Part shown: positions 4,990 to 61,539 of the stretch, one piece after another | How positions within the stretch are numbered: position 1 is the first letter of the stretch | How the letters are laid out: each line of letters starts with the position of its first letter | NCBI GenBank assembly: GCA_964016885.1 | Contig: OZ024745.1 | Coordinates: 93,434,001-93,498,000, forward strand | Direction of reading: 5' to 3' | Length of the DNA: 64,000 bases | Origin: Eledone cirrhosa | Taxonomy: Eukaryota | The notes under the pieces: model-generated | What the model saw: only the letters and a program-made list of their open reading frames with translations | Told to the model about the DNA's origin: nothing | The model's database searches: none | Position numbers and translations under genes: made by a program

Positions 4990-6186
4990 ATATAATATTA
5001 ATTCAAAATATTAACAAAATAGATATTCTTGTGATCAATTATATTTTATTATACATATTTCAGAGGTAATGAGTTAAGTTCAACAGTACGTCCTCATTAG
5101 ATAAAATAAAATGATACATGACATACCCTGACATGGTAGAGGGTTAAGATTCAATCAAGGTAGTGATTAAATTATGACAAAACTCAATATCTATACCCTA
5201 ATATTGAGAACATGAGATAATATAATACAAACAATAGAGAGGGTGTATGTAATAGATTTTAAGAAATACATGGCATCAATATAACAGTTATAAACTTTTT
5301 AATTTTTAAAAACTACTAGAGAAAGAAGAGGGATAAGAAAGCATAGAGGAAGAAACAGCTGATGTGATATCTTTAGTGCGTGGCTTAAGACAGATGAAAG
5401 ATGATTAAAGAGAGAGAGAGACAAAGGGGGGTAATTTATGTTCAAGTTTGTATATAATATAGTTGGCGGTTAATTTTCAAAATATTTAATTTATGTTATT
5501 TCAGGGTAAAGAATCATATTTTTGGTTTTAAAAGTTAATATGTATTTGTATTAATATTATAATATAATTATGTTAAATTTCTAAAATTCAAATTTTATGA
5601 AAACAAATTTAAAGGATTTAAGAAATACGAGAAAAGAATATATATATATATAATGTTCTATATCCTCACGAAGGTAATCTTTACCAAAATTACTTATAAT
5701 ATTGACAACAGTTTCTATAATATAATTTATAAGAGAATTATAGTTATAATTATTAAATAATTTATTGTTAAATAGTTTGAGTGCCTAAAGTATCAACCGG
5801 CCTTATAATTTTACATATATAGCCTAATTATGAGAAAATGCGAAAACGTAATAAATTCATTCTCTAATGAATTTATTACGTTTTCGCATTTTCTCATAAT
5901 TAGGCTATATATGTAAAACTTTCTCTTGGGTTAATCACTACCTTGATTAAATCTTAACCCTTTAACATCTCAGGGTATGTCATATATCATTATATTTTGT
6001 CTGATGAGGACGTACTGTTGTACATCCGAAATATGTATAATAAAATATAATTGATCAAAAGAACATCTATTTTATTAATATTTATATTTTAATATTAATA
6101 ACTCCGGAAAATTATTTTACCGTAGAGTGCTTCCAATCTACTGTAAAACTCATTCTTTGACATAATCATTGAATATCGTTTAACAC

Positions 6187-6190
<4 letters not shown>
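4990..6190. mobile_element. Non-coding fold-back PLE remnant (minus-strand 3' UTR plus inverted pseudo-LTR) between (TA)n tracts
   Basis: About 5000-5170 is the reverse complement of about 5931-6095; internal 53-bp perfect palindrome; hammerhead motif in both arms; (TA)n on both sides. Confidence 0.75.
5989..6051 (+). ncRNA. Type I hammerhead ribozyme
   Basis: Stem I attatattttgt/ataaaatataat; CTGATGA 6001-6007; stem II ggacgtac/gtacatcc; GAAA; short stem III tatgta; TA cleavage site. Confidence 0.85.
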
Positions 6191-6269
<79 letters not shown>

Positions 6270-7059
6270 AGTATTGAAGTTTCCGTTGAAAATTGAAAAA
6301 GTCATAGGAGTGAAGAGTGGTCTATGTAAGTTACAGAGCTAAATTTAATGTATAATAAACAATACAATATAATTACCTCATTACCAGAGGTTTCCCGGAT
6401 AAGACTAATACAAGAAACGTCCCCATTCGTTCGTCAGACAAGGCAATTTAAAACATAGTGAAATATTTGAAAAATCTCCTCAAGAAAGGCAAAAGTATAA
6501 CGGGCACAAAAAATATATAAATAAAAGTAATGCAAGAGATATATAAAAATAAAATAAGGAAATATAGTAATGGTATGTGTATAAATGTTTGTATATGCAC
6601 CTACAAATGTACATGTGTGTATGTTCAAATGCATGTGTATAGTGAAAAATGTGTGCGTAAGTACATAGATAAGGGCAAGCATATCAGTGTATAATATATG
6701 TTGCAAATATATAATATATAATATATGTTGCAAAAAGAAATTGTAAGATAATAGAGTTAGCGTACATACAGACTAAGGATTGAAATATATACACATACAA
6801 GTATGAAAGCACGCGTATAAACACATACACACGCGAAACCACATACATGCATGTGATATATACAGGGAAGGGAGTGTCTCAGTCAAAGCAGTGTCAGGCT
6901 GAAGGTCGATGCATATATAAAAATATAAAATATGAAAATAAAAAAATATATGAGAATACAAAAATTAAATCAAAGAGAAAGTAAGAGGGAGGGGTTATCA
7001 ATTATAAAGTAACACTAGAAAAATAGAAAACATACAGAGGTTCGTACACACACACACAC

Positions 7060-10648: not shown

Positions 10649-10714
<66 letters not shown>

Positions 10715-10741
10715 AACAAAAGATGGTTAAAAGAGTTCCAT

Positions 10742-10813
10742 GTATTTTATTATGCGCATTTCAAAAACAAATATCATCATGCAATAATATTTGTGTTTTC
10801 ATCAGATAAAACA
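10742..10813 (-). ncRNA. Type I hammerhead ribozyme in PLE 3' pseudo-LTR
   Basis: Reverse complement: tgttttat CTGATGA, long stem II (acaaatattat/atgatatttgt), GAAA tgcgca TA ataaaatac. Confidence 0.88.
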
Positions 10814-11577: not shown

Positions 11578-13385
11578 TTAGCTGTATACTTTGTGAAATG
11601 TTTTATGGAATTTATGCAAGCAGATAGAAAACAAGTCAGTGCGTCTATTTATTATAGAATCTAGATTAGAGATAATGGTAAATTTTTCATTTAGACAGAG
11701 ATTGCAGATTTTGGATAGAGAACTGTTCAAGTATAAAGACGCAGAAGAAACCTTCTTCCAAAAGATGTTATATTTAATATTTTTGTCTTTCAAGAACCAT
11801 ATGAGTTCTGAGAGAGCCGTGTTGGTTCTTTTAAGTTTGTATTTAAACGACGAATGATGGTTATAAAGACGAGCTTTAAAAGAGGTGGAAGTGGAGCCAA
11901 AATAGGTGAAGGAATTGGTGTCAGTTATAACTTTACATTCGTAAATTAAGTTTTTATCAAGACAATGGTTGTTGAGAGGACATTTATTTTTAATAGGGCA
12001 ATTGCAATTAGAGAGATTATTAATGAGTGACCTAGTGTTATCTATAGAAGGAATTGGATTGGAGAAGTTGTTTGCGATAGGAATAATAGTTTCTTGATTT
12101 AGAATGGGATTATGAACATTTAACGAAGTTGTGTTTGACGTTGTATTTGGCTTTGTAGAAATTAGCCTAGGGTTTACAATGACGTCGGGAGTACTATTAT
12201 TATGAAATTCAGTGTTGGAAGGAAGAGATTTAGTATTTAGTATTTTATTGTTGTGTTTAGAGATAATGTTGGAAATGTTGGAGGATGTAGAATAAGAAAA
12301 TTTTATAGTGTGTTTGTTAAATATTTTACTATAGATATGTGAGGGAGGGAAGCATTTATTTAAGGCACTAAAGAATAATTTAGGAATATTGTTATTAATA
12401 GAGATGGAGAAAGGAGCATTATACCAGATTATGTTTTTGTATCTAGGTCTTTTATTAAAGTTATTGGAATGATCATGATTAATTATTCTACTGTAATTTC
12501 TTCTAGAATTTGTTTCTTTACTATATTTGATTTTATCAGGATAGCCGGCTTTAGAAAGCGCGTTATTATAGTAATTGGCGTTAGCATCAAAGATGTTTTT
12601 ATTAGAAGATAGGTTAGATATTCTTTTTCCAATATTACTAACTATAGCATTCTTGATATTAGTAGGATGGTTAGATTTAAAGTTAACATAATTTAGGTTC
12701 TCATTGTTTTTATGGTAAGGGTAATATAGGCCAGTATCAAGATTAAGAGATACATCCAAGAAATTAGCTAGTTTGATACTGTTATCAAATTCAATTTTTA
12801 GGTTATGTTGGTTAAAGAGATTACGTATATTGTTCTTAATAATATTAAGGTTAACTATGTTGCAATTTAAGATAGTAAAGAGTCCATCGTCACGATAAAT
12901 TCCACCGCGAAGTTGAGGAATTTTCCGACTCAAAGAGTTCAAAATAAAGATACCAATTAAATCAGTCAATTGGGATGAATCGGATGCTCCCATTGTGATG
13001 TCGAAGTTGTTAGAGGTATCGGCTCTGGTCCAATATTCGTTGTTGAACTCTAGGATGGTTTTACGTGCGGTGAGAATGATGTGAAGTTCATCTGTGGTGA
13101 TGTCAGAATATTTAAGTGCGAAAGATAGAGCATTATTGAGAAGTGAAGGCGAAATGGAGGAATAGTAGCTGGCAATATCAAATTGAACAAATTTTAGTTT
13201 GTTTTTATTATTCAATTTGTTGAACCAGCTAATCACTTCAGAAGTACCAAACCATAAATTTAGGTTCAAAGAAGAGCAATTAGAACGAACCTGTGGGATA
13301 ATTCTATCCAAGATGGCTTTACTAACAACCCCCAGATCTGATTTAGAGGGGGCGATTAATCTAACAGGTAGTTCAGTGCGAAAAT
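11578..13385 (-). CDS. PLE reverse transcriptase plus GIY-YIG endonuclease (about 600 aa, uninterrupted, N-terminus missing)
   Basis: QFDIASYY, ITMGASDS, GIYRDD, NFLDV; CNCx5Cx5C linker; LIY..YFG, KARLYNH, CNLC..CLH. Confidence 0.92.
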
Positions 13386-13529
13386 TGAAATGCGCATAAT
13401 AAAATACATGGAACTCTTTTAACCATCTTTTGTTCTTATATATTATGTATACTCCAGTCCTACAAACTGTAGAGTGCTTCTTATCCGATATCTGCATTGC
13501 TTTATTGTACTACAATAAAACTCACCTCC

Positions 13530-13598
<69 letters not shown>

Positions 13599-15334
13599 AA
13601 TTAATTAACTCGTCTCATAGACTAAGTGCCCTACCTATACCAAATTTGTACTACAGCGTCTCTGTTGAGCTCGCCTGCCTTCGTGAAACCTTTGGTAAAT
13701 GGAATAATTATATTGTGTTGTTTATTACATAATTATATATATATATATTATATAAATATCTATTATATATATATATATATGTGTGTGTGATTATAATGGA
13801 ATATTCCATTATTAATTTTGGTAAGGTGTGAAGAGCTCGATGCGCAAGGATTTCAAACAATCGCAATGTTTGTATATCGTGTAAACAATCGAATATTAAT
13901 TGATTCTTTGTTTGCATATACATGCAAGCTTACCACATCTATAGAAACGAATATAGATATTAAAGATGGATTTAATTTTAAAACTTTATATATATAAACA
14001 AATATACAGAGAGAGAGTGATGTAGAGAGAGGGAGTATTTTACGAAGTTATTTGAACAACGAAATTGCTTAATCTACAGGTGGGATAAAAAAACAAACAT
14101 CTTTCGTTCAGAACACAATAACTCCTTTTTATATGCTGTATTGACTGGCAAGTCTGTGTGATTAATTCTATAGGAAATGCCTCTCTAACTGAACTCACGT
14201 TGGTTAGTTATCAGGCAATATTTATGCACGAACTAACGACGGATATTCTACCTGGTCACTCGACTTGCTTGAAATAGTAGCTAATTCTCCGGGAGTACCG
14301 CAAATTACACCATACTGAAAGATGTATTGGATAAAGAAATCCTAGCTACACAATGCCTCCAAAAATTAGAGATAAACAACAAAACAACGCTAATATAAAA
14401 TGAAAAATATTGCGGCAATTCTGAATTTCATTCTGCAACAGGTAGGTGCACGAAAACCTTTATGATATGGATTGAAAAGATAAAGAAGTTTTACCTACAA
14501 TAAACGTTAAAATTGAGCACATTTTTAGCTTCGTGCCTAATATTACAAAAGAAAGTGTGCACAAAAAAAAAAAAAAAAAACATTTTATACATCTGAATGT
14601 TTGAAAAATTATAGTTTTGTAACTTTAACAAATTTTCGATTTAATAACATAAGTGTGAAACGACCACATTTTATTTGACAACAAAAGCTTAACGATTATT
14701 AATTAAAAAAAATAACGAACGATTTAATAAACATGCTTTAGCACTCACGATTACTATGGAAACAAAACAATTTTTACAAAAAAATAATGTTTTCCCCTTT
14801 GATACCAGCCGCCCGAAACCGCCCTACATTTCTGATACAAAATAGCTAATTATAAAACGTTATCATTATATAAAAAAAACATTTCATCATAATTTTATTA
14901 TAGAAATTTTTCTTAAGTAATGTTCTATTTATCAGCTTACTAATGAAAAACTCAGGGTAAATTTTTATTATTACACCTGTCTTTGAGGCGTGTTTTATGG
15001 AGTTCTCAGGTGAAGGAACCACATAAAACAATTTACAGTGGTTTTCAAGGCCAAATTTCGTAGGAAATACTTAAATTTCCCCTTCAAAATTCTAACCAAA
15101 CCTATCAACCCTTAAAATTAATATTACACCGATCTGGGAAACAGATGTAATAATGAAAATATACTATTTCATTAGAAATACAGTAATGAAAGGTTTAATA
15201 TTTAACTAGCTGGTTGATTGTCAGTTGCAATTTGTTTCTCTTTAAACATAAACATTGTACCTAATAATTTCACCATTTAACCGTCCCATACATCGCTAAT
15301 CTTACACTTGTAAAATATAGAGGTAGTCTTGTAT

Positions 15335-18195: not shown

Positions 18196-21100
18196 TTTAG
18201 TGGGTTGGTCATAGGGTTATTTACTCCAGTAAATACCACTGCATGCCAACCACTAATTTATTTTGAAAGAAGATATGGAACAACTTTTATGTAATTTTCC
18301 TTGGTTAGAATTATCTCTCTACATTCGAAATAATAATTGAAGCATGACGAATATCTCAAAACGAGTGTCAAAAACAATTTGTATTTATTGTAGTGCGTGT
18401 ATTACAATTTGGTAACAAAACGTACCTTGTGTAATCCGAAAATGCAAGATAGGATTAGAAAAGCTTAACATATTCGTGCTCGTGTGTGGTCAGTTTGAGA
18501 ACCTGCTGCCAAAGAGAGGAAGATTGCCCTTTGTTCTTTCTTTTATAATACCTGGAACGGAAGTCCAAGGGATATTCTAGAAATTTCACGGGAAGTAACT
18601 CTAGCTACTTCCCTTTGTCTAGAGAGCACTACAAGACTCCCCTCCAAGGTCATTGTAGCGAGAACCTGTAAGAAATAAGGAGCAAGACAAAAGTACAAGA
18701 AAATGCATGAATAAAACAAGAGCTCGCAACTGAAGCAAATAGCAAAAAAAAAACACAAAACAAATAAATGCATTTTACAAAGAAAAATTTTTGCTGCACA
18801 AGGATGATGCAGGAAAATGTAAATATCACAAAACTGATAATTCAAAGTTAACATAAAGGAGCAGAGAAAAATTAATGCTCAATGATAAGTTCAGTTTCTT
18901 CAAAATCAAATAGTTCATACATCACCAGTGTACAGACTTTTCTGACACTAATTCTATATGAACCTGAAAAGAGTTTGTTGATGCCACCAGGGGTTAAATG
19001 TATATAGTTTTTAACAATTTACTGTTCTGCCACTTCGTGTGACATAAGGTTGTGTGGTTTGCGGTGTTGGTGTGGGAGTGAATGTACGAGGTGTGTCAGG
19101 CATTGTAATGAGACTTTCAGAGAAAGCCCTCTTTGCTCTGTCAATGGATATTGTCTCTTTTCGACCATTGACAGCCACTGTGAAATGTTTTGGTGTGTGC
19201 GAAAGCACATGAAAAGGTCCATTATAGGGTGACTTAAGCGGTCCCTTGACGGAATCATTCCATATAAAGATGTGTCCACGTAGAGATATCTGATTGAACA
19301 GCAGAATAAATAGACTGGTCACGAGAGTTCATTGGTGAAAGATCCGAGAAGTAAGAACGAATCCTGGTGACATATGATGTTGGATCAAGATGCGATGAAT
19401 CAACCGGTGCTAGCATTTGACTGGTAAGAGTCAAGGTGGTACCGTAAAGAAGTTCAGCTGAGGAGAAAACCAAATGTGTCTTAACGGCAGAACGACAACC
19501 AAGAAGCATGATTGGCAAAAATTCAGTTCAACGTTGCGGATCAGGAGTAGCACAGAGTGCAGCTTTCAACTGTCTGTGAAACCTCTCCACCATTCCGTTG
19601 GAGGCTGGGTGATAGCTGGTCGTATGAATGGTGATGAGCACCCAAAAGTCGTGATATTTCATGAAATAAGGAAGCCTCGAACTGGCGTCCCCGATCCGTG
19701 GTTATTTTAGAAGGAACACCAAAGCGAGCAACCCAATTGGAAATGAAAGCTCGCGCAATGGACTCGGCTGTTATGTCCACTAGGAGTATGGCTTCAGATC
19801 ACCGAGAGAAACGATCGATGCAAGTCAATATATATATGTGAACCCACGACTAATGGGCCAAGGACCAACTATATCCATGTGAATGTGACGGAAACGAGCG
19901 TCCGGCGGGCTGAATTTACCAAGAGGAGCACAAACATGCCGATGAACCTTAGAGCGCTGACACTGCAAACAAGAACGTGCCCAACCGGTGATTAAATGAC
20001 GCATGTTAGGCCAGAAGAATCAAGCCGTGATGAGCTTCACTGTGGCAGCTATGCTGGGATGCGACAAGGAATGAAGTGCATCAAAAAATGGTACGCTGAT
20101 GACAATCTGGAACAAGTGGTCTGGGTGAGCCGGTAGAAATGTCGCAAAGAATTTTCCCTTCCACAGACGGAAGAGGTAAATATTCAAATTTACAGCAGGA
20201 AAACTGGGTAGAAGTATCCAGAGAATCCAAAGAAGGTTGGTCAGTCACAATGGCAACCAAATCAATATGTGCAGGAGACGCAAGGGAGCACACAGAGAGT
20301 TGAGACAGTGCGTCCGCGGATACGTTTCCAGCTATATGATGAATGTCACTGGTGTACTGGGAGATGAAACCCAAATGCCTGTATGCCCTCGGAGAGTAAC
20401 TGTCGGACTTGGATTGAAGAGCAAATGTGAGTGATTTATGGTCTGTGAATATCGTGAACTCCCGACCTTCAAGATGGTGGTGGAAGTGTCTTACAGCAAG
20501 ATAAACTGCTAAAAGCTCTGTCAAAAGTACTGTAACATTGCTCTGCTGGTTTTAGTTGGCGTGAGAAAAACGCCAGTGGTTGAAACTGGTGGTTGATTGT
20601 ATGTTGCAAGACTGCTCTGACAGCATGATCGGACGCATCAACAGTTAAGGATAGCCTCGTGTTCGCAAAAGGATGAGCCAGAAAGGAAACTTTAGCTATT
20701 TCGGACTTGACGGATTCAAAAGATTACAAAGCATCGGCAGAAAGTGAAATAGGAGCATCTTTTTTTTTCGCAGCCTTTAAAAACTGTGTCAAGGGAAACA
20801 ACATGTCCGCACAGTTAGGGATGAAACGATGATAAAAGTTGATTAATCCTAAGAAATGCTGTAACTGCCTCAATGAGGTGGGGGGTGCGATTCGCTGAAT
20901 CACTTCCACCTTAGATGGCAGAGGTCGAATGCCTTCTGAATCTATAAGATGTCCTAGGAATTCCAGTGAAGCGGTACCAAACACACATTTAGCTGGGTTG
21001 ATTCTGACCTGGTACGATTGAAGACGTACCAGGTCAGAGATAGATGTTGATGATGATGTTCAGCTGTGTCGTTGGCTATTAGAAGGTCATCCACATAAGC

Positions 21101-37812: not shown

Positions 37813-37861
37813 TATATATATATATATATATAGTTATGTAATAAACAACAGTTATGTAATA

Positions 37862-38500
37862 AACCAGTGGTTTCTTGAAAGCAAACAAATTTGCTTTCAG
37901 TCATCAGAATAAAAAAATCCTGGTGTATTTATTGACAGTGGATTTGAAAATCATCTTGCACTGTGGAACAATTCTTTCGCGGTGATTGATTGGTTCAACA
38001 GCATATGCAGCAAGGAACATTGCCATTTTATCCAATTCGACAGCAATAATTACTACTCCTCCATCACTTTACCACTTCTCCTTAGAGCTATCAATTTCGT
38101 TAAAACACTCACAGTGGTTAAGGATTTCGAAGTTGATGTCATCCTCAATGCCTGTAAGTTGGTGATTAATTTCGACGACTCTATTTGGATTAAAAAATCT
38201 AATAGTACCCCATTCGACGTGAGTATGGGCGCCAGCGATTCTGCGGAGGTTACTGATCTTATCGGCCTTTTCCTTCTTTTCTCTATCAAAGAAGAATTCC
38301 CCAACGTGGGCAGTGGTTTGTACCATGATGACGGTCTTTTGACCATGACTAAGTGCGGCCCACATGCTTGCAACAGGTTCAGAAAAGAACTCACAGCCTT
38401 CTTTAAAGGCTTCAACCTTTCCATACAGGTTACGGCCAACCTCTCAGTCGTTAATTACCTCGACATTACCCTCAATTTATCGAATGGCTTGACATACGCC
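37862..38500 (+). mobile_element. PLE RT core fragment preceded by an inverted partial hammerhead
   Basis: IDWF..FIQFD..YYSSI, DVSMGASDSAEVTDLIG, LYHDDG, VNYLDITLNL; minus-strand CTGATGA/10-bp stem II/GAAA at 37862-37914. Confidence 0.85.
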
Positions 38501-38631
38501 ATAACATATACAATCAAATATACGTACGAGTTTAATAAATATTTGCTCTACGGTTCTTATATATTTGATATATATTTTCCTTATCGAGCCCTCTTTGGAT
38601 TTTAGTCTTCAAATTTATTATTATTACTATA

Positions 38632-39503: not shown

Positions 39504-39539
<36 letters not shown>

Positions 39540-39540
<1 letters not shown>

Positions 39541-40370
39541 ATGATATTAATAAATGGAAATTATATTTATAAAACCATATTTATTCTATTATATATATTT
39601 CAAGGGTACCAAAACTTTGGTACGCACTCATCAGATAAAATACAAAGTTTGTTTTATAAATATTGACATATCCAGGAATGAGACCTTAACGGTTCAAGTT
39701 TTTCCTGGATAGTAAAAGGAAAAAGGGGAAGAGAGGAAAAAACAAATATTTCAAATTATTTAGATGAATATGCAAATGAGGTTGAGGCGTAGGGCTGAAA
39801 AAATCGTTATTTTAAGACGCTAGGTAGATTTAAATAATTATTAGGATATATATATGTATGTATAGGCAGAAGAAAGAGAAAGAAAGAAAAGCTTGTATTT
39901 ACGTGAATTTAAAAAGATTGAAACGTTAAGAATTAAGTTTGTTGGAGTGGTGGAATATGATTCCAGAATTTAAAAAAAATATTTAGCTAAATTATGAGTT
40001 ATACTATTATATATATAATCAATTAGATTATATGAAGAATTATGATTGTAAGTACATTTTATCTTGTTATATTGCAAGAGGTTGTAAGTATATAAATATC
40101 TATATAGATTAATAATTGTGCCAGTATAAGTAATATTGGTGATTTTATAGAAATAAACCACACGTATTAATTGTTTACATTTCTAATGAGTTACGAAGGA
40201 TGTTGATTTTACATATATATTTAAGAAAAAGACATAGAAAAGACAGAAAAATTATAAGAGATGAACAATTTTTAGATTCAAATATTTTCAGAACATTATT
40301 AATTTAGCGAAATTACATATAGTTTATCATACAAGTTATTATGTCTTGTATCAGATGAAAGAATGGTATT
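39540..40370 (-). mobile_element. PLE 3' UTR / pseudo-LTR remnant
   Basis: 39544-39670 closely resembles 61433-61576; shares ttacgaaggat with the 10713-11577 UTR; abuts (TA)n. Confidence 0.65.
39582..39642 (-). ncRNA. Type I hammerhead ribozyme
   Basis: Reverse complement: tattttat CTGATGA ..gtaccaa/ttggtac.. GAAA tatata TA atagaata. Confidence 0.85.
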
Positions 40371-40373
40371 TAA

Positions 40374-41500
40374 CTAATGTATTGGTACGCGATGGGGCCC
40401 ACCCACAGCCTCGGTGGACAGAATGGAGAAGGCGTTTCCCCGGAGGAAGGCAAGGGAAACGCGCTGGAAAAGCCACTCCAACTCGTAGGGCTCACACCTG
40501 TGGTTGGCCAGCTCAGCGCCTATGGTGGTGAGTAAGCCTGTGGAGGTAGCCCTGGGGCCGAGGACACCAGAAGTTTCCACTGCCAGGGGAGCGACCGGTA
40601 TTTGAGGAGTTTGGCCCCCTCAGCCCGACGTGCAGCAGAACCTCGGTCAGTCGCAGACTGCACCAGGTTGCGGCTGCAGAAAGTGTCGGTGCAAGTGGCA
40701 TCCCAGACGAGGGGTATGCCACCGCGGAACGGGAACATGTCATGCCATCTGGCCTTTTGCCGTCCCCTCGATCCAGCCCCACCGGCTCGAGCTGGGAAGG
40801 GAAGCCTGCAGCGTCCAAGCCATGCTTAATGACCTCGTTGAGGGCAGTATGGCGTGGAATGTGGTCGGCACTGTGGCGACAGGAAAGGGGGTGGAGGCCG
40901 AAAGAGTCCACTGTGGAACCGCAGCAACATTGGTGTGGCTGGCAGATCCGGAGGCCGAGCCTCAGGGAAACGCCGATTCGCAGGCTATGGTTGTCTAGCT
41001 GTGTGCCAGTAGAGAAGGAGGGCAGAGCATGGAGCCAGGCACCACTGTGGGGTTTGGAGCCCGCACGAAAACAAGCAAGGCGGTGCCGGTCGAGCTGGCG
41101 CGTGAGCCTGTCTGAGGCCAGGCTACACTGGATGGCATCCCAAGTGCGTTGGGGGGACTTGACGTTAACAGGGGAAGAAGGAGGAGGGACGTCTACTGGG
41201 CTAAGTCCCAGCCGGTCCCATGTCTCACAGGCGGCCTCACGTTCTCTGAACACAGAGGGTTCTGTTGTGTTTTGAAGAACCCTGCTGACGAGGACGCGGC
41301 ATGAGGTTACCGACGAAAGATACGCCGGCAAAGCTCGTGAGATCGGGGACCGGAGGCCTAGGCCGCCATACCTGACTGGTAAAGTGGCCTGTTGCCACCC
41401 TATGTCATCAAACTTGACGTCGCATATCCCTTCGGCTGCTGCTCGGATACAAGTATCGAGGTCAGCGAGGAGAGATGTCTGGGTGTAGCATGGAGCATGT
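40374..41500 (-). mobile_element. CRE-like non-LTR retrotransposon 3' half (post-RT region, zinc motif, REL endonuclease), frameshifted
   Basis: LPVRYGGLGL, SGAWL, CCCG..D..GLH..SC, RH..LN, RPDG, WDATC.D, E..KLLKY, ETSG..G, QRVSLAFLRGNA. Confidence 0.88.
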
Positions 41501-41550
41501 TTGCTCAGTTGTAAAGGAAAAGATAACTCCAATATTATTTGTTAAACTAT

Positions 41551-44945: not shown

Positions 44946-46295
44946 ATTAGATGAGATGCAATTTGGTTTTGTGCCCCAGAAAAGTACAACAGATGCCCTC
45001 TTCTTGGTGAGACAATTACAAGAGAGGTTCCTAGAGAAGAATAAGCCACTATACTTAGCTTTTGTTGACCTAGAGAAGGCCTTTGATAGGGTACCCCAAT
45101 CTGTCATCTGGTGGTCCCTAAGTAAACTAGGTGTAGATGAATGGCTTGTGAGGACAGTGCAAGCTATGTACAGAGTTGCTGTCAGTAAGGTGAGAGTAGG
45201 AATGGAGTTTAGTGAGGAATTCCAGATACAAATAGGTGTACATCAGGGTTCGGTCCTCAGTCCGCCTTTGTTCATTATAGTCCTCCAAGCCATAACAGAG
45301 GAGTTTAAGACTGCCAATGGGAACTTCTCTATGCTGATGGTCTGCTTCTTATAGCAGAATCAATAGAGAAGCTAGAGAATAAATTCTGGCCTTGGAAACA
45401 GCAGTTGGAATCAAGAGGACTGAGAGTGAACATAACTAAGACAAAAGTGTTGATAAGTAGAAGAGAGGACAAAACTCTGACTCCAAAACTCTGATTCGGC
45501 CATGTTTGATATGTAGAAAAGGAACTGGCATAAATTCTATAAAATGTACGCAGTGCAAATCTTGGGTACACAAGAGATGTAGTGGGATAGCAGGCAAACT
45601 AACAGGTAGGGAAAACTACGTATGCAGTAGATGTACAGGGAAAGTTGGCAGTAGTAATCGCAGTGATAGACACATTTTTCAAATGAGGTGGTTTCTATAG
45701 AAGTGGTTGATAGCTTCCGGTACCTAGGTGATCAGATTAGCATTTGTTCTGAGGCCATAGTATCTAGAATAAGGACGGGTTGGAAGAAGTTTAGGAAGCT
45801 GCTTCCTCTGTTGACAAAGAAGGGTTTCTCCCTGCATACGAAAGGCTGGTTATATGATGCCCGTGTGAGATGCACAATGCTGCATGGTAGTGAGACATGG
45901 GCAGCAACTGCAGAGGATATGCGACGGCTGGAGAGAAATTAAGCAAGCATTCTCTGTTGGATGTGCAATGTCAATGTGCGTGAATGACCAAGTATAGATG
46001 AGTTGAGAGAGAAACTGGGTATAAGAAGGATAAGTTGTGGTGTGCAGGAGAGGACACTGAGATGGTATGGACATGTGATGCACATGGAGGATGACCGCTG
46101 GGTAAAGAAGTGCCAAGAAATCCCAGTAGAAGGAAGACGCAGTAGAGGTAGACCACGGAAAACATGGGCGGAGGTGGTGAGAGCAGACCTCAGATTGCTG
46201 ATAGTCACAGTGACAAGTGAAGAGATGCTGTGCTGAATAGGACCTGTCCCACCCTTGCAAGCAGGAAAAAGTGGACGTAAAATGTGATGATGATG

Positions 46296-48013: not shown

Positions 48014-49474
48014 AAGTAAAGAAAACAAGATATATTTTTGATAGGACATTTTTCATCTATCTGTCTATGTATATAATATTTTACAAGTTGTTACTGAGTT
48101 ATCAAAGAGACATAAGATGATAAAAGAGGTTATTTATATCATAGAGGCTGGAAATGTGCATAGTAGCTTCATAGTTGGTAAAATCAGAAAAGTTGCCTAT
48201 TTTGGAAACAGATTTTCTGTACAGAAAAAAATCATTCCAAGGTTTATTGAGAATATAGGCCAACTTGAGAGCAGACTGTTTTAGAGTGATGGTAGTCCAA
48301 CGTATTGCAACTTGGTGATGAGGTGGGAAAGAAAAAAAATTGGGTTGTGCAAAACTTTACCATTTTAGTTAAAGAGTGTTAGATAAAAAGAGTCTACAAA
48401 GAACATATTCATTTACAATAAACTAGAAATTTGTAGATTATGGTGAAATCATCAATGGAAAGCATGTGTCAACATTTTGGATTTTTCTTCAGTTGAGTTT
48501 TATTTTGAATGTCTATAGCAACAGCACAAACTTCATTAAAAGCATGTAAGTGATAGGAAGGTGGTTTAAAACTGAGAAGCATCTTGCGTTTACTGCCACA
48601 TCAAAAGTAGGGGAGCAGTGTGTGTTTATCATGATACCAGATCAAAAGAGTTTTTGAAAGACTTAGAACATTCTCTGTCTTGGGCAGGTATTTTTCCATT
48701 TCAGAATAATAGAACTCCTAGGTGTTCTGCTTTACTGTAACTGCAGAGGTTATATCTTTCTTGAAGTGAACAAAGATATAGATAATACAGGCGGGAATAG
48801 AAGAATAGAGAAGGAAAAAAGAGAAATAAGAAGTGTTAAAAGGATGTAAAATTCAGGTAGATTTGAAAATTAGACAATATTTCCTCAAAGATAGATGTAA
48901 CAATTCCCAACAAAAAAGAAAATGAAGGTGTGAAAGAGGAGCAGGTTTTAAAACAAACATAACCATGTATACTCATGTATAAGCTGAGAAATATGCAACA
49001 AAAAAATTTATGATAAAATTGGTGGTGTGGAGTTGCCGATTTTCACCAAGTACTTAAAAAATGGCACTAAAATATCTGGATACTTCTGGTAATTTTTGTG
49101 AGTGAAAATGGTATTTAAAAAAATGTCATCATTCTTGTAATGCATACATTCGGAAAATCTATCTGAAAAACATGCAATTTTACAGATGTTGTGAAGAAAC
49201 AAATTGTGTATGGGGGAAGCAGTACACTGTAATTATACATATATATACTGTATATACTCAATTATAAGCTGATCTGAATATAAGCTGACACCCTATTTCA
49301 TGTTTGAGAAATAGGCAAAAATTCACATTATGTTTAGATGATGTGGTTTTGAAATTCTCTAGAGTATAGTTTTTGTTTCACAACCCCATTGTGTAATGAT
49401 TTTTTACCAATTTCCAACGATTTTGAAGGCCATAGTTATTGAAAACATATTAAAAACTAGATGAAATACGAATT

Positions 49475-51760
49475 GAAGCCAGTATATTATTCACATCCAA
49501 AGTGAAACCAGTGTAACATTCACTTCCAAAGTGAAACCGGTGTAATATTCACCTCCAAAGTGAAACCGGTGTAATATTCACCTCCAAAGTGAAACCGGGG
49601 TAACATTCACTTCTAAAGTGAAACCGGTGTAATATTCACTTCCAAAGTGAAACTGGTGTAATATTCACCTCCAAAGTGAAACTGGCGTAATATTCACCTC
49701 CAAAGTGAAACTGGCGTAATATTCACCTCCAAAGTGAAACCGGCGTAATATTCACCTCCAAAGTGAAACTGGCGTAATATTCACCTCCAAAGTGAAACTG
49801 GCGTAATATTCACCTCCAAAGTGAAACTGGCGTAATATTCACCTCCAAAGTGAAACCGGCGTAATATTCACCTCCAAAGTGAAACTGGCGTAATATTCAC
49901 CTCCAAAGTGAAACCGGTGCAATATTCACCTCCAAAGTGAAACCGGTGTAATATTCACCTCCAAAGTGAAACTGGCGTAATATTCACCTCCAAAGTGAAA
50001 CTGGCGTAATATTCACCTCCAAAGTGAAACTGGCGTAATATTCACCTCCAAAGTGAAACTGGCGTAATATTCACCTCCAAAGTGAAACTGGCGTAATATT
50101 CACCTCCAAAGTGAAACTGGCGTAATATTCACCTCCAAAGTGAAACTGGCGTAATATTCACCTCCAAAGTGAAACCGGTGCAATATTCACCTCCAAAGTG
50201 AAACCGGTGTAATATTCACCTCCAAAGTGAAACCGGTGCAATATTCACCTCCAAAGTGAAACCGGTGCAATATTCACCTCCAAAGTGAAACCGGTGTAAT
50301 ATTCACCTCCAAAGTGAAACTGGCGTAATATTCACCTCCAAAGTGAAACTGGCGTAATATTCACCTCCAAAGTGAAACTGGCGTAATATTCACCTCCAAA
50401 GTGAAACTGGCGTAATATTCACCTCCAAAGTGAAACCGGTGTAATATTCACCTCCAAAGTGAAACCGGTGCAATATTCACCTCCAAAGTGAAACCGGTGC
50501 AATATTCACCTCCAAAGTGAAACCGGTGCAATATTCACCTCCAAAGTGAAACCGGTGTAATATTCACCTCCAAAGTGAAACCGGTGTAATATTCACCTCC
50601 AAAGTGAAACCGGTGTAATATTCACTTCCAAAGTGAAACCGGTGTAATATTCACCTCCAAAGTGAAACTGGCGTAATATTCACCTCCAAAGTGAAACTGG
50701 CGTAATATTCACCTCCAAAGTGAAACCGGCGTAATATTCACCTCCAGAGTGAAACCGGCGTAATATTCACCTCCAAAGTGAAACTGGCGTAATATTCACC
50801 TCCAAAGTGAAACTGGCGTAATATTCACCTCCAAAGTGAAACTGGCGTAATATTCACCTCCAAAGTGAAACTGGCGTAATATTCACCTCCAAAGTGAAAC
50901 CGGTGTAATATTCACCTCCAAAGTGAAACCGGCGTAATATTCACCTCCAAAGTGAAACCGGCGTAATATTCACCTCCAAAGTGAAACCGGTGCAATATTC
51001 ACCTCCAAAGTGAAACCGGTGCAATATTCACCTCCAAAGTGAAACCGGCGTAATATTCACCTCCAAAGTGAGATTGGCGTAATATTCACCTCCAAAGTGA
51101 AACCGGTGTAATATTCACCTCCAAAGTGAAACTGGCGTAATATTCACCTCCAAAGTGAAACTGGTGTAATATTCACCTCCAAAGTGAAACTGGCGTAATA
51201 TTCACCTCCAAAGTGAAACCGGTGTAATATTCACCTCCAAAGTGAAACCTGTGTAATATTCACCTCCAAAGTGAAACCTGTGTAATATTCACCTCCAAAG
51301 TGAAACTGGCGTAATATTCACCTCCAAAGTGAAACCGGTGCAATATTCACTTCCAAAGTGAAACCGGTGCAATATTCACCTCCAAAGTGAAACTGGTGCA
51401 ATATTCACCTCCAAAGTGAAACCGGCGTAATATTCACCTCCAAAGTGAGATTGGCGTAATATTCACCTCCAAAGTGAAACCGGTGTAATATTCACCTCCA
51501 AAGTGAAACTGGTGTAATATTCACCTCCAAAGTGAAACTGGTGTAATATTCACCTCCAAAGTGAAACTGGTGTAATATTCACCTCCAAAGTGAAACCGGT
51601 GTAATATTCACCTCCAAAGTGAAACCGGCGTAATATTCACCTCCAAAGTGAAACTGCCGTAATATTCACCTCCAAAGTGAAACTGCCGTAATATTCACCT
51701 CCAAAGTGAAACTGGCGTAATATTCACCTCCAAAGTGAAACCGGTGTAATATTCACCTCC
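49475..51760. repeat. 29-bp tandem satellite, about 78 units
   Basis: Unit aaagtgaaacYggYgYaatattcacctcc repeated head to tail with no spacers. Confidence 0.97.
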
Positions 51761-51988
51761 TTACTGAAAATCAGTAAAATATTGACTCCAAATAAAAACC
51801 AACTTTACATATTTCTTGGCTCATATCATGTCCGTTGTTACAATAAATATAAAAACTTACAAACATACTTTTATAAATATACTGAAACATTGACACAGAC
51901 ACATACATGCACACACAGAAATTTACAATTATGCATAGACAGTAAAATACACTCATATAATCACATAAATGAAAACAGACTATATATA

Positions 51989-53228
51989 TTGGGTTGATGC
52001 ATAATTATTGAGGCCTTTTTTCAGCAAATTTTATTCAATAAAAACAATAACATTTAACAAAAACATCTTTAAATGATTATTCCGGAGCATATTCATCATT
52101 TACTTCAATTACTGCTTCCCATTTGCTTGGCAGACGGTCGATTCCACGGGCGAAGAAGTTACTGTTCTTAGAGGCAATCCACTCTTTGATGGCGGCCACC
52201 AAATCATCCAAGTCGTCGGAAACTTTGTTCGCGAGCCAATTTTTCAGCAATCGATTGACGTGATAGTCTGTGGGAGAATATGGCGGATGAGGAAGCAGTT
52301 CCCAGCCCTTATTGGCGATAGATTCGACGACACTACGCTCAACATGTGGACGCGCATTATCGTGGTGGTAGACAATATGGTTCTTTTTGCGCAGTCTTTT
52401 CATCTTGATTGCAGCGTGAATGCGGTCAAGTTGAGCTAGATAAACGTCGCTGTTGATATTTAATTGCCGCTTGCCATTTTTGTCCAGAATCTGCCACTGT
52501 TGACGCTCATCGTCGTCATTCCACCAATAACAAATCCCGGTTGAGATGATTTCCCAGTGAATGATTCCGCTTCTGTCCCACCAAACACACCACATTGCCT
52601 TCTTACAGTGGACGCCTTTAGGTATTCCTTTTGGTGAAACACCTGGCGAAATGCAAACCTTCTTTCTTTTGACATTTTTGAAGAGAAGCCATGATTCATC
52701 CCCAGTGACGAGATTCTTCAGGAACAGAGTTTGCTCATTTCGCTGCAGCAAATCGGTAAAAATTCGGACACGTTCGGCTTTGTTGTTATCCAGCCAATTT
52801 CCATACTTTTCCGAGCTTTTTGAGACGACGAACGATAGTCAAATGGTCCACATTGAAGTCTTCGGCCAACATTCTCGTTGTCAAGCTTTCGTCCTCTTCC
52901 ACGGCTGCCAAAAGTACCTGGTCGTTGAAATTTGATGGTCGACCTCTTCCTTCTTCACCTGCGAGGTTTGTATCGCCCGATTTGAACTTCCTGAACCATC
53001 TTTCAACTTGGCATTTGCTGATTGTTCCTTCATCAAAAAGTTCATTGAGATCGCGAAATGACTGTGCTGCATTCCAACCTTTCTCGAAGTGTGGATATGA
53101 TTTTCGATATGCATTCTGAAAAGAGAAAAACCCGACCGTCATTTAAAGATATTTTTGTTAAATATTGTTATTGTTTTTGTTAAATAAAATTTGTTGAAAA
53201 AAAGCCGCAATAATTATGCACCAACCCA
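51989..53228 (-). mobile_element. Mariner transposon (D,D,D transposase, frameshifted) with about 88-bp inverted termini
   Basis: HTH (VERWFRKFKSGD, GRP), TGDESW, HHDNARPH, HPPYSP-TDYH; TIR ttgggttgatgcataattattg/caataattatgcaccaaccca; left TA present. Confidence 0.93.
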
Positions 53229-53700
53229 CATTGTGTGGATCTGTCTGATTCTGGATCTGCAGGTTTAACGGACACTTCTAATGATTTCCGAGCAAATTCT
53301 CTCACTGGGGTGTTAGCGTCAAAAACATCCTCTTCGCGCGTCCTGCTAGTGGCTGCTGTTTTTCTACGTCATCATAATTTTGACCAACAGGTGCCATCCA
53401 ACTGACTATCAGCTGTCCCTTTTCTGCCACACTTTGATGAATTACTGCTGGGTTTGGTAGTTCACACGTCCGCGCGCGCACTCACACACACAGACACAAT
53501 CCGATAGATAACTACATCCGTACGCATATACTCCCGCTATACATACGCACTTAAGGAGAACATATAAACCTATAAACATATGCATACACAGACGCCTGCC
53601 TACATGCCCACATACATCAACACACGCTCACACATGCATACGCGCATATCTACTCATATACACAAACACGTACAAACATATACATAGACACGCACATGCA
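53229..53700 (-). repeat. Second copy of the non-coding element at 60219-61116
   Basis: Reverse complement of about 60446-60950 with few differences. Confidence 0.9.
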
Positions 53701-56919: not shown

Positions 56920-59900
56920 TATGAGATAGTACAAGGAGGAGTATGAGATGTACACTTGGGCCTGTATACGGAACAAATAATGTGTTCCAAAATGGAATAC
57001 GTGGAGAGTATGGACTCTCGATTGAAAAGATACATATGCATGGGGGTGCGTGGTCCGGCCATACTGGAGTATGTCACTGTGGTTGAGGTATGTTGTCCTA
57101 TAGGTGTAAGGTATTTGACTGAAAGTCAACTTGTCCCGGCTCAGGCGATGTTCTTGCCTAAGGTGACGTGCAGAGTCGGGTATGCATCTTGGGTTATTTT
57201 GGTTTACCCCAAGGGGCATATACTGTCATCAGGGTATGGTGTCTGATCCCTTGAACCGGTTTCGCTACTCTGGTCGGCATGTGCTCCGCCGCATACCTTT
57301 AGCCCCTGGGCTTCTCGGTGGATTCCATGCGGAGAGTGTGCACCTTCTCTGGTGTCTGCACGTCATGATTATTTCCGATTTCAGGTTGACTGCATCATCC
57401 TTCAGTCTGACTATCTCCATGGCCTCGTATAGGCATAGGCTACACTTTCTACCTCCAGCCGAGTATGCATTCGCGTGCTGAACGATACTCCAGTCAAGGG
57501 CATACGGGGTGCCCTTGTCTTTTAAGTCCCACACCAGGTCCGCCAGCCTAGTAGAGTGCCTCTTACTCCGGTCCTTGAAAGAGTTTGTGTGGTTATACAT
57601 CCGTGATTTAAAGGTTGTGGATGTTGCGCCGATGTATGTGCGGTTTATATTGTGCGTGCTAACCACACATTTATATACCAGGCCCTTCATCAGGCATCTT
57701 CCCTGCAGGAGGCACTGCATGCCCGCTCTGCAGTTGCACGTTATGTTGTAATGTTCATTTCGGACGCCTGGCCCTTATTCTGCTAGGGCCCTCTCCCGAT
57801 TCTCGGTGTTGTTCCGCTGACACGGTGGTCTCTCCTCCGCCACTCAATCCTGCTTGGCATTGGATTGTATCGTCTTCCGTGGGTGTGGCGGCCGCCGCGA
57901 AGGCCGGATTGTGGTTGGAAGTCCAGTCTGTGAAGGGCCCTCCGGGCTCCGATGGACGGTCATTCTGCTGCCGCGGTTGATGGTCGAGGTTCCCCATCTT
58001 TGCCGCATTGGTTTTCGCCATGTAGTAGGCCATATTAGGTGCTGTGGAGAAGGAAAACTTCACCGTGTGGCGGTTGAAAATCTTGTGGTATCTGTTCGAC
58101 GGCGAGAAGCACTCGTCTAACGCTTGGAAAAAGAGGCCTGGCACATTACTGCATTGCTTAGAATACGGCGCGTTAAACCATGTAACGCCCTTAGATCTTG
58201 TCTTGTTCTTTCGTGTGTGTGTGTAGTAGCGTGAGTGTGTTTTGGGTCTGATGTCTCTCGGGTTTTGCCTGCCCATTATTTCGTCCCCTATGTTGCCTCT
58301 ATCTATATGTCTGCTGTGGGCGCCATGGTTATGCCTTTCGCTTACTAAGGTATTCCGTTTTGTATTGTCGGCTCTACTGTTAGTCTCGTTAATGCTATGT
58401 GGTGCTGTTATCGGGGCTATACCATTGCTACCGGGCCGGGTGTTCCCTCTAGCGGGTGTTCCCTCTAGCATGGCCGTACTTGTCGTTACTCTGTCCCTAG
58501 TTCTAGTTTCCGCAACACACGTGGTGTGCATGCCGGGCTTTTGTCTACATGTACTGGGTCGTCTATCGCCCGTGTGCGTCTTCGTCTGTCCTATTGTTGG
58601 TCCTGTGTCCTTATGGTGACCTGTGCTGCTACTTGTGTTCTTGGAGGCTAGTTCCAGGTCGTTTCTTCTAGTTATGGAAGTGCCACTACTATTGCCATAT
58701 CCACATGCCTCAACGCTAGGCTCTTGCCTGTCTGTGGTGTACACTATGCTGTCTGTGTAACCGGCCCTGCGCAGTGCCTCATTATAATAGTCGGCGTGTT
58801 GGTTGAACACGTCTGCGTTGGCCGACGGGGTGGATACACGTTTAGATACCCCTTTAATTATTGCTTCTATGAGTGACTTGGGGTGGTTCGATTGCCTGTT
58901 CACATATTGCAGGTTCTCATTGGGCTTGTGATAAGGTTGGTGGATGCCCGTATTCATTTCCAGGGTAACGTCCAGGAAATTCACTGTCTTAGTGCTAGGA
59001 TCTATCGTCACGGATAAGCTATGTTGCTTAAAAAAGTGTGATATACGCTTCCTCATATGCTCCAGCTGGCTGGGGTTTAGGGAACGGAAGGTTAAAAAGT
59101 GTGTTGTCTCTGTATATTCCTCTGCTGATCCCTGGGATCTCCTCCGCTAATCTTTGGAGGATAGATCCCCACCAGATCGGTCACCTGCGCCGAGTCGCTC
59201 GACCCCATAGTAATATCGAAACTGTCGGGTCTGTCCCTCCTCTCCCATAACTTGTCTTCGAATCTAATTAGCGTCTTTCATGCTGATATTATGAGGCTTG
59301 CCTCCTCCCTAGTGAGGTTGGACTTGGCCATGGCGCTAATGAGGGCCTTGTTCACTATTACAGGTGATACTCACGCGTAATAATTTGCTATGTCTAATTG
59401 AATAAAATTTACCTGCTGTTTGCTATCTATTAGCGAGAACCAGTCAATTACCTCCTTGGTGGAGGTCCATAAGCTAAGCCTAGTTTTGTTCCTAAGTACC
59501 GGTAGTATCCTGTCTATGAAATTCTTGCTGGTCCTACCTATGTCTGATTTGGAGGGTGCTATTAGCCTAACAGGTAGATTAGTTCTAAAGTCTAATTTAT
59601 GATCCTTAATGGATATCCAAGGTTTTCTAGGTACATATAGTTCTGACTTATCATCTATTCCTAGCCTGGTCATTATTTTTTTGGACGTGGCGTTAATGTT
59701 ATCTAAGTTGTCCTGTCCTGTGGTCCTGTAATTTTTCCTAACCTCTTTCCCAACGCAGTCGTTGTATGTAAAACGGTCAAGCATGTATACATTACCAGTT
59801 TTGTCCGAGGGCACAATTAAATCCAGGTACTCCTCCATGCTTTTGATTGTGGAGCTCAATCTCCGGAGGTAATCCGTATGTCGTGTAATATTCCTTCGGA

Positions 59901-60208
59901 ATTTGATGTTTCTGACGATGTTGATGATGTGGTTTTCAAATTCTTCCAGCTGTACATTATGTGGTGGGTGTCGTCTTGATCTAAAGATCCACTTTAGGCG
60001 GTCCTGAGGATTATCGGGTGCGTGTTGCTGTGTCCTTCTGTTGTAGTGAAATGCGCACCATCTCATGCTTCTAACGAAAGAGTTGGTGTGGTGCATCAGT
60101 AGGCTCATGTATGTGTTGTCAGATGGGATTGGGATGTCTTTAAAGAGGAAGAGTAATTGAATTTTTCCATGGCGAATCACTGTAAGTGCTCTACTTGTAC
60201 AGGAACGT
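56920..60208 (-). mobile_element. Full-length but inactivated GC-richer Penelope-like element
   Basis: gccATGG at 60170; KDIPIP N-terminus, SDKT, KDHK, QLDIANYY, ITMGSSDS, YRDN (catalytic D lost), NFLDV, CNC..C..C, LVY..YIG, CSLC..CRH; two TGA stops and about three frameshifts. Confidence 0.93.
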
Positions 60209-60218: not shown

Positions 60219-60651
60219 TGTCTGATGGTAGCTAAGATGCTTCCATAGGCAGTATGCCGGTTGAGCGCTCTATGTTCTTACAGAGCAGAGTGTGATATAA
60301 TATAAAACGAAAAATCAGTGATGATCTGAACTCAATTTATTGGGTGTTACAATTGTTTTGCCAGCGGACAGCTCGAGACACGATCATTGTGTGGATCTGT
60401 CTGATTCTGGATCTGCAGGTTTGACGGACACGTCTAATGATTTCCGCATGTGCGTGTATATGTCTGTATGTGTTTGTGTATATGAGTAGATATGCGTGTA
60501 TGCATGTGTGCTCCTGTGTGCATGTGTTGATGTATGTGGGCATGTAGGCAGGCGTCTGTGTATGCGTATGTTTATAGGTTTATATGTTCTCCTTAAGTGT
60601 GTATGTATAGCGGGAGTATATGCGTACGGATGTTGTTATCTATCTGATTGG

Positions 60652-60696: not shown

Positions 60697-61116
60697 TGCA
60701 CGCGCGCGGATGTGTTAACTACCAAACCCAGCAGTAATTCATCAAAGTGTGGCAGAAAAGGGACAGCTGATAGTCAGTTGGATGGCACCTGTTGGTCAAA
60801 ATTATGATGACGTAGAAAAACAGCAGCCACTAGCAGGACGCGCGAAGAGGAGGTTTTTGACGCTAACACCCCAGTGAGAGAATTTGCTCGGAAATCATTA
60901 GAAGTGTCCGTCGAACCTGCAGATCCAGAATCAGACAGATCCTCACAATGATCGTGTCTTGAGCTGTCCGCTGGCAAAACAATTGTAACACCCAATAAAT
61001 TGAGTTCAGATCATCACTGATTTTTCGTTTTATATTATATCACACTCTGCTCTGTAAGAACATAGAGTGCTCAACCGGCATACCGCCTATGGAAGCATCT
61101 TAGCTACCATCAGACA
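60219..61116. mobile_element. Non-coding fold-back element with about 230-bp inverted termini between (TA)n tracts, PLE-associated
   Basis: 60219-60445 is the reverse complement of 60889-61116; each arm has a hammerhead-shaped fold and the TA-bulged hairpin. Confidence 0.75.
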
Positions 61117-61473
61117 CATATATATATATATATGTATATATATATATGTAAATATATGTATGTATATATATATTTGTATATATATATATGTAAATATATG
61201 TATGTATATATGTATATATATATATATGTAAATATATATATGTATATATATATATGTAAATATATGTATGTATATGTATATGTAAATATATGTATATATA
61301 TATGTATGTAAATATATGTATGTATATGTAAATATATGTATATATATATGTATATATGTGTATATATACATATGTAAATATATGTATTATGTATATGTAT
61401 ATATATATGTAAATATATGTATGTATATATACAATATTAAATAAATGGAAAACTATATTTATAAAACCATATT

Positions 61474-61539
61474 TATTTCATTATATATATTTCGGGGATA
61501 TCATATTAACAATATGCTATGCCTTCATCAGACAAAATA
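61474..61539 (-). ncRNA. Type I hammerhead ribozyme
   Basis: Reverse complement: tattttgt CTGATGA ..catatt/aatatg.. GAAA tatata TA atgaaata; abuts TA-rich microsatellite. Confidence 0.85.

Follow-up and report, generated by a model that had tools for sequence, protein, structure and literature searches.

Several structured RNAs recruit or position a reverse transcriptase (RT). The hepadnavirus epsilon element, which is recognized by the RT, comprises a lower stem, a bulge and an upper stem, and its 6-nt bulge on the 5' side templates protein priming. The 3' stem-loops of stringent LINEs (eel UnaL2, CR1/L2) and the 3' UTR of R2 recruit the RT for target-primed reverse transcription and are common to non-autonomous partners; these 3' structures are single, lie 5' of the start and hence are copied. 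Telomerase RNA and DGR spacer RNA each have a structured part that lies next to a short template patch and places the RT for internal initiation.

The RTs of Penelope-like elements (PLEs) are related to that of telomerase (PMC8557442). In PAc (Poseidon), reverse transcription begins at two internal sites that coincide with the tail ends, both target strands are extended, RNA 3' of the start is required, hammerhead cleavage is dispensable, and a dimer was predicted by Frangieh 2024 (PMC11167929). The accessible text of that paper describes one predicted AC-rich stem loop, 111–118 nt into the ORF, with starts in or beside its loop (PMC11167929). The marks of the Hydra clade, as given by Craig 2021, are a C-terminal GIY-YIG endonuclease (EN) with CxCX5C, CxxC and CxH motifs, a DKG motif changed to DKT, an RWK motif towards the N-terminus, the absence of the CCHH motif, hammerheads in the pLTRs and (TA)n targets (PMC8557442). 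How PLE proteins choose their RNA, and how inverted repeats with a one-ended tail originate, are stated to be open questions in the accessible parts of these papers (PMC8557442, PMC11167929).

Hairpins and element ends in the window

We analysed a 64,000-nt stretch of the Eledone cirrhosa genome (the window), for which a preliminary description had reported a recurrent hairpin in PLE termini. All six hairpin stretches that it listed are present at the coordinates and on the strands given there. In the features below, hp1 and hp2 denote the two hairpins of the element order hammerhead–hp1–hp2–ATG, which is seen in read-through copies of families A, B, C, E and others; short ends stop 5' of hp1 and long ends 5' of hp2.

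4992..5100, minus strand: inverted family E arm whose short end stops ~4 nt ahead of hp1; probably the partner of the end at 6194
5994..6046, plus strand: predicted type I minimal hammerhead, family E (pattern match)
6101..6131, plus strand: hp1, family E; in the read-through sister copies L161 and L170, hp2 follows 98 nt further on, then the ATG
6132..6194, plus strand: remaining tail, family E; the long end meets (TA)n about where hp2 would start
6267..6315, minus strand: remaining tail, family C; long end into (TA)n
6316..6339, minus strand: hp1, family C, with one mismatch; hp2 is seen in the read-through sister copies L446 and L477
6373..6446, minus strand: predicted hammerhead, family C
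10708..10811, minus strand: family A body, with hammerhead and short end but no hairpin; partner of the end at 13534
11578..13380, minus strand: 5'-truncated Hydra-type RT–EN reading frame, family A
13387..13534, plus strand: inverted arm, family A, with the 3' half of the hammerhead, hp1, tail and a long end that lies 6 nt before the hp2 of read-through copies
13451..13478, plus strand: hp1, family A, within the inverted 5' arm
13694..13736, plus strand: family C-type short end without hairpin
39537..39634, minus strand: family D hammerhead and short end, without hairpin
57265..60170, minus strand: Hydra-type ORF, family B, broken over several frames
60185..60206, minus strand: hp2, family B, 14 nt 5' of the ATG
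60264..60291, minus strand: hp1, family B, in a read-through copy
60344..60381, minus strand: hammerhead-shaped element without canonical core, family B
61044..61071, plus strand: hp1, family B, in an inverted arm
61072..61123, plus strand: remaining tail, family B; long end into (TA)n
61429..61531, minus strand: family D hammerhead and short end, without hairpin

Other elements also occupy the window. A Hydra-type RT fragment at 37913–38605 (+) is joined to an inverted family C-like short end at approximately 37830–37876. A mariner-type transposon at 51990–53228 (Transposase_1, E 3e-11; inverted termini) has inserted directly in front of the hammerhead region in a piece of family B 3' UTR (53229–53699). 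In addition, the window holds a non-LTR RT followed by a PHD finger at 54181–55689 (−), with a second, diverged copy at 44948–46192; a 2.3-kb tandem array at 49471–51800 with a period of ~29/58 bp; an LTR-type RNase H fragment at 20081–20551 (−); and a 342-codon frame with Cys/His motifs at 40513–41541 (−) that overlaps an antisense hammerhead-like core (CTGACGAG...CGAAA at 41285 (+)).

The distance from the hammerhead cleavage position to the hairpin is 61, 42, 52 and 56 nt at four loci, and the hairpin at 60185–60206 (−) stops 14 nt 5' of the ATG at 60168–60170 (−), both as described before. A hammerhead at each of the four loci had also been claimed. The complete core is present at two of them (5994–6046 (+) and 6373–6446 (−)); near 13451 the 3' half alone lies in the window, and the family at 61044 and 60291 (family B) keeps the three hammerhead stems, with the canonical core in 0 of 56 copies. 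The five loci of the preliminary description do carry the motif but are not equivalent sites, four being hp1 of four families and 60185–60206 being hp2, which belongs to one and the same family B element as the hp1 at 60264–60291. In the window, the copies at 6316 (GACC) and 60185 (GTTC) carry mutations, and sister copies show GAGC and GCTC.

The hairpin hosts are assigned to the Hydra clade

By their protein motifs and insertion features, the elements that carry the hairpin are assigned to the Hydra clade of PLEs. Both window ORFs have a C-terminal GIY-YIG-type EN, for which the Pfam match is weak (E 0.005), together with CxCX5C, CxxC and CxH, and the elements lie in (TA)n. The family B ORF at 57265..60170 shows RWC, DKT, CxCX5C, GIY-YIG-like, CxxC and CxH motifs. 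The DKG-to-DKT change is present in the family B copy of the window and in read-through copies of families A, E and D, where family A combines it with an RWK-like motif; the RWK motif near the N-terminus reads RWK in family C, RWR in D and E, RWI in A and RWC in the window's B copy. A search that used the family A frame as query retrieved 46 relatives of 32–40% identity, and an alignment of 20 of these led to 76 metagenome loci and 10 MAG contigs. Among the 57 metagenome loci with an ORF start, RW[KR] is found in 57/57, [AS]DK[TS] in 56/57, CxCX5C and CxxC each in 52/57, and CxH in 51/57. A canonical hammerhead is present in the pLTRs of families A, C, D and E, in 0/56 copies of family B, and none was seen in family G. 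The elements insert into (TA)n, have inverted pLTRs and may carry a tail.

The Hydra elements of Craig 2021 are alike, in the accessible text, in protein motifs, hammerheads, (TA)n, inverted pLTRs and a tail that is frequently one-ended; their tail measures 30–40 bp and is ascribed to the endonuclease, whereas the tail here measures 55–98 (PMC8557442). The motif had been attributed to PLEs at large, but we see it in the Hydra clade only. A Naiad/SECIS identity was considered and rejected, because the EN lies at the C-terminus and the motifs are those of Hydra.

Five Hydra anchors have 15,310, 3,224, 1,602, 46,022 and 8,607 exact matches in the genome, counts far above the expansion of a few families described for the clade. 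The 3' UTRs of families A and D measure 0.9–1.4 kb. The contigs L247–L256 are Hydra PLE contigs within three bacterial MAG assemblies in GTDB, and probably represent contamination from an animal host.

The motif is abundant genome-wide

The motif is not provable from the window alone, where a loose descriptor gives 7 matches compared with 4.1 in shuffles (maximum of 10 among 200 shuffles) and single hairpins fold weakly (z −0.05 to −1.93), frequently in another register; the genome-wide counts exclude chance. In the 3.0-Gb genome of this species, ACTC-N8-26-TAGAGTGCT has 21,001 matches versus 272 with a reversed-pattern control, and GCTC-N8-26-TWGAGCACT has 17,389 versus 293. Three of the first 30 ACTC-pattern loci (L014, L015 and L018) are unrelated sequence, and the two-arm pattern yields 3,839 matches versus 539 in the control, many of them satellites. 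A covariance model built from 19 metagenome hairpins finds 133 matches in 86 loci; it recovers only four of the six window hairpins, weakly (E 0.03–2.2), and ranks two antisense matches and a loose match at 38539–38594 equal to or above them. An Rfam 15 scan of the window returned 45 matches with E <= 1, all below the gathering score and none at the six hairpins, and a search of viral contigs for relatives found none.

An invariant lower stem supports a covarying upper stem

The hairpin consists of a near-invariant lower stem (GCUC/GAGC, or ACUC/GAGU through a G–C to A–U exchange in most hp1 of this genome), a U–N bulge on the 3' side, an upper stem that varies in sequence and covaries, and an unpaired RCU that is conserved; GAGCACU, like the lower stem, is nearly invariant. 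Loci were clustered at 75% nucleotide identity and one per cluster was kept, giving 47 hairpins from 27 clusters with sequence-only anchors; the variable stems were misaligned by MAFFT, and pairs were therefore counted by script from the stem base. In these metagenome hairpins, upper-stem pairs 1–4 are formed in 44/47, 32/44, 23/29 and 16/24 cases, as compared with shuffled means of 35.5, 18.8, 11.1 and 9.9 (p <= 0.007, with shuffles that ignore relatedness among the sequences), and the fifth pair is at chance. The exchanges seen are C–G/U–A and A–U/U–A/G–C/C–G, and the invariant lower stem adds little covariation. For hp1 covariation is significant at all four pairs; for hp2 it is modest (p 0.08 at the first pair and 0.04 at the second and third, not significant at the fourth). 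Thus, the proposal that the upper stems vary and yet pair is borne out above shuffles in 47 hairpins of 27 divergent metagenome families.

A bulge of 0, 1, 3 or 4 nt abolishes upper pairing, and the 2-nt register alone pairs; an alignment tool is concordant with this register, one of its two runs being fitted to the model. The bulge is not specific to TA, as had been proposed. It is U–N, mostly UU, with U as the first base in 44/47, and in the metagenome relatives (n = 47) it reads TT in 30, TC in 9, TA in 5 and otherwise in 3. Within this genome, the 152 distinct strings comprise 88 TA, 53 TT and 11 TC in a sample partly selected for TA. G–U pairs exceed A–C oppositions by 12 to 4 in the metagenome set and by 57 to 31 in the non-independent strings of this genome, a modest excess that favours the sense strand. 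Single hairpins give weak and often misregistered folds, so that the structure would need protein.

The hairpin is duplicated upstream of the ORF

The motif is duplicated, which the preliminary description had missed, and it is this doubling that accounts for the tail. Of the 50 loci of this genome taken at an ORF start, two arms are seen in 23, one in 10 and none in 16, and one yielded no start; those listed among the 16 are mostly 5'-truncated. Two hairpins are found in 27 and one in 11 of the 51 metagenome loci that have 110 nt or more of upstream sequence, and when an upstream hammerhead core is present (n = 23) the counts are 17 and 4. By comparison, 451 control ORF windows contain two hairpins in 4 cases and one in 9; these windows were used instead of a reverse-strand control (7 with two and 13 with one, of 51), which is uninformative because the motif is partly self-complementary. 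The hp1–hp2 spacing is 55–83 nt in 20 metagenome families and 87–98 nt in families A, B and E, and in 22 of 24 families hp2 ends 12–39 nt 5' of the first ATG.

Published consensi carry the same arrangement in part. Hydra-1_Ajap starts with hp1, also has hp2, and has its 3' end 2 nt before hp1, and Hydra-2_Ajap and Hydra-2_Amil contain the motif once each, terminating in hp1 and tail. In Hydra-1_Crog the motif is degenerate and in Hydra-1_Obim it is ambiguous; Hydra-1_Amil, which has no tail, does not contain it. The supplement of PMC8557442 (584,000 characters, in which line breaks may hide some) contains six occurrences of three exact 9-mers from the 3' arm, four in Hydra consensi and two in coding-like sequence (Naiad and Chlamys files).

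For family C, two pattern searches for hp2 gave 0 matches and 8 matches, with no ORF start after the two of these that were inspected. This hp2 was located through the ORF in L446 and L477, and the searches missed it because its upper arm is ~65 nt long, which indicates that the loop side tolerates large insertions. A separate, nested element as the source of the family B hp2 was considered and rejected.

Inserted copies end just upstream of either hairpin

The hairpin sits 3–6 nt downstream of both positions where inserted copies end. Copies were chosen by hammerhead-side patterns, blind to the hairpin. Unseeded extension alignment places the ends of family A as 13 short, 15 long and 2 run-on of 30, those of family E as 19 short, 10 long and 1 other, and those of family B as 13 short, 11 long and 6 other. 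In a count over five families that was seeded near the hairpins and could place ends there only, 262 ends comprise 149 short, 105 long, 2 run-on and 6 unplaced. The last matching base falls at −7 to −1 in 127/149 ends at hp1 and 78/105 at hp2 (205/254 placed ends), positions that TA microhomology blurs by several bases. The same offsets are found in six metagenome or MAG loci (L200, L201, L203, L210, L248 and L251), and in family C hp2 begins ~4 nt past the long end, as predicted. Since the ends stop just 5' of hp1 or hp2, the PLE tail here corresponds to the hp1-to-hp2 interval. Upstream of the hairpin, TAT or ATA occurs at −9 to −3 in 35/47 cases, compared with 14 and 9 in flanking windows, and TA occupies −6/−5 in 48% of 46 hairpin flanks.

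Inverted insertions pair a long end with a short end

From match lists, 60 inverted insertions were picked by position alone. Their end pairs comprise one long and one short end in 55 cases, two short ends in 4 and two long ends in 1, with totals that are unchanged when L404 and L410 swap classes by eye and that include the duplicates L415 and L416; this mixing has p ~5e-12 versus independent choice. The family A and family E insertions of the window are of the mixed type. Arms are more similar within than between pairs in families A, C, D and E, and not in family B. By a rough count of asymmetric pairs, the tail is on the longer arm in 12 pairs and missing from it in 6. The inverted arms pass uncut through the hammerhead site. 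Many short palindromes of family A (L377–L391, L035–L047) stop, by eye, ~110 nt upstream of the hammerhead GAAA, a boundary that is possibly the RNA 5' end or transcription start; similar 5' boundary clustering is hinted at in families E and B.

The hairpin is retained without hammerhead or ORF

The hairpin does not depend on an intact hammerhead, as family B retains both hairpins although the canonical core is present in 0/56 copies. Its shortened core (CTCGA) is found in all 56 copies examined, and the family gives 1,602 anchor matches; family B appears to be a ribozyme-dead or variant family that was amplified nonetheless. The hammerhead-shaped elements of family B at 60344–60381 (−) and 60954–60991 (+) keep stems I–III and the cleavage position around this core.

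Family G (L495–L498, G000:C1 18.4–23.1 Mb) has an ORF-less 575–600 bp unit in PLE-type partial tandems in (TA)n. Its four tandem loci show no match to five Hydra proteins and no full hammerhead core, having only a CTGATGA half core, and they carry hp1 and a degenerate hp2 ~3 nt past the long end. By these features, family G is likely a non-autonomous Hydra partner. In families F and I (L061, L075 and L082), hp1 and tails were seen with no hammerhead nearby.

A model for priming beside the hairpin, and alternatives

The duplicated hairpin is probably a cis-signal that acts on the RNA by docking the RT–EN, with target-primed reverse transcription starting just upstream. The element protein would bind the hairpin on the sense RNA, and the nicked (TA)n target would pair with the UA-rich patch (−9 to −3) and prime there. 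Two enzyme units, possibly a dimer, would use hp1 and hp2 to serve one target strand each, and the two cDNAs, joined head to head, would give the inverted repeats and the one-sided tail. In this model each Hydra end is read as an RT start by carrying over the internal starts of PAc, an element that belongs to another clade and does not have this sequence in its stem-loop. Lying just 3' of each end, the hairpin is then the best candidate for a docking site, and the mixed end pairs suggest one hairpin per target strand. As both arms cover the same RNA region, the process would need two RNA molecules, strand displacement or template re-use. A recognition or priming signal for the element protein, as proposed before, is the most likely role, and the ends 3–6 nt 5' of the hairpin give positional evidence for it; epsilon-style priming at the bulge does not fit, since the ends fall 5' to the stem and are joined to (TA)n of the target. 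A stronger form of the model is programmed double priming, in which two hairpins dock two RT–EN units, each unit primes from one strand of the (TA)n target at the UA patch next to its hairpin, and this alone yields inverted pLTRs and a one-sided tail, the hairpin being a portable RNA anchor. We hold this form tentatively, at slightly less than even.

The main rival is a signal at the DNA level, followed by a single start with fold-back or antisense self-priming and then by 5'-UTR regulation. At the DNA level, the GIY-YIG EN would recognize the motif in the cDNA or a double-stranded intermediate and cut at the TA patch 3–6 nt off, so that a longer intermediate is resolved at hp1 on one side and at hp2 on the other. 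GIY-YIG enzymes cut at a fixed distance from their recognition site, and the lower stem and 3' arm are invariant in sequence, the arm being a GAG-NN-CTC near-palindrome in 27/47. Craig 2021 ascribed the tail to EN-mediated resolution (PMC8557442), and according to Frangieh 2024 the D. virilis tail is needed for EN recognition of plasmids (PMC11167929). However, a covarying upper stem of variable length, from loops of a few nucleotides to a 65-nt arm, is unexpected of a double-stranded DNA site, the excess of G–U over A–C favours one strand, and the tail ends are RT start sites in PAc (PMC11167929); we regard a DNA-level signal, including such two-sided resolution, as unlikely.

In the fold-back reading, one hairpin would set where the RT starts and the other where it stops or where joining takes place, with the second arm terminating at hp1 after fold-back of a single cDNA or antisense self-priming. 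Many short insertions are indeed near-perfect head-to-head palindromes with common variants, and antisense-template self-priming was proposed for the Adineta Penelope (PMC3846280). Fold-back from an hp2 start predicts a tail that is always on the longer arm, whereas the longer arm lacks the tail in 6/18 asymmetric pairs (3/8 clean cases) and in the family A insertion of the window; furthermore, a single consensus and a single offset are common to both hairpins, suggesting one role, and we consider either part of this reading improbable. The slimmest chance is given to hairpins that serve translation control or packaging from within the 5' UTR, for example in autoregulation by the element's own protein or in hammerhead gating, with ends that coincide through preferred neighbouring TA patches. 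Such a role would fit the placement of hp2 12–39 nt before the first ATG in 22/24 families and the protein requirement of PAc hammerhead cleavage (PMC11167929), but the end offset is fixed at both hairpins across spacings of 55–98 nt, the end pairs are mixed, and an ORF-less element keeps the hairpins, as does a family that lacks the hammerhead core.

Comparison with described RNA elements

In its proposed role the Hydra hairpin resembles the RT-recruiting RNAs of LINEs, R2, epsilon and telomerase, and it is closest to the PAc stem loop; it lacks those defining features of epsilon and of the PAc structure for which it was tested. The bulge here is 2 nt and on the 3' side, and the ends lie outside the hairpin and join target DNA, in contrast to epsilon. 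As compared with the LINE and R2 structures, the Hydra hairpin is doubled, lies 3' of its start site and is not copied from that start. The doubled, downstream position is unmatched by the RT-recruiting RNAs of LINEs, R2 and telomerase RNA considered above. The likeness to PAc, from the accessible parts of the PAc paper, includes internal initiation 3' of the hammerhead, two tail-defining starts, AT-rich targets and the extension of both strands (PMC11167929). In our own reading, the letters of the PAc stem loop (Fig. S1B) also allow a lower and an upper stem with an internal loop on the 3' side, without the GCUC/GAGCAC sequence. By comparison, the Hydra hairpins are a short motif doubled in the 5' UTR and conserved across phyla, with variable loops and with ends outside the stem. 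Neither a strand difference in start sites nor end pairing is reported in the accessible parts of the PAc paper (PMC11167929).

The earlier suggestion of a second conserved, covarying structured module in PLE termini holds, and the module is apparently undescribed. In PMC8557442, the word 'hairpin' occurs 0 times in the accessible text and supplement and 'stem-loop' 0 times in the supplement, and the accessible parts of PMC4209133, PMC7229834, PMC8969392 and PMC3846280 do not mention the motif. No description of the hairpin was found in the openly accessible text that was searched.

A motif of 25–35 nt is shared from coral and sea cucumber consensi to this genome, and its two copies predict both ends of the elements within a few bases. 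It provides a simple annotation rule for the boundaries of Hydra elements and their non-autonomous partners, of which this genome holds tens of thousands of ends, and it could serve as a minimal RNA partner in structural studies of this telomerase-related RT. The doubled motif also makes the choice of RNA by PLE proteins and the origin of the tail testable with few mutants. If double priming is true, the hairpin together with its template patch would be the first RNA anchor to be defined for a retroelement RT related to telomerase; it would be portable and enough to mobilise an unrelated RNA.
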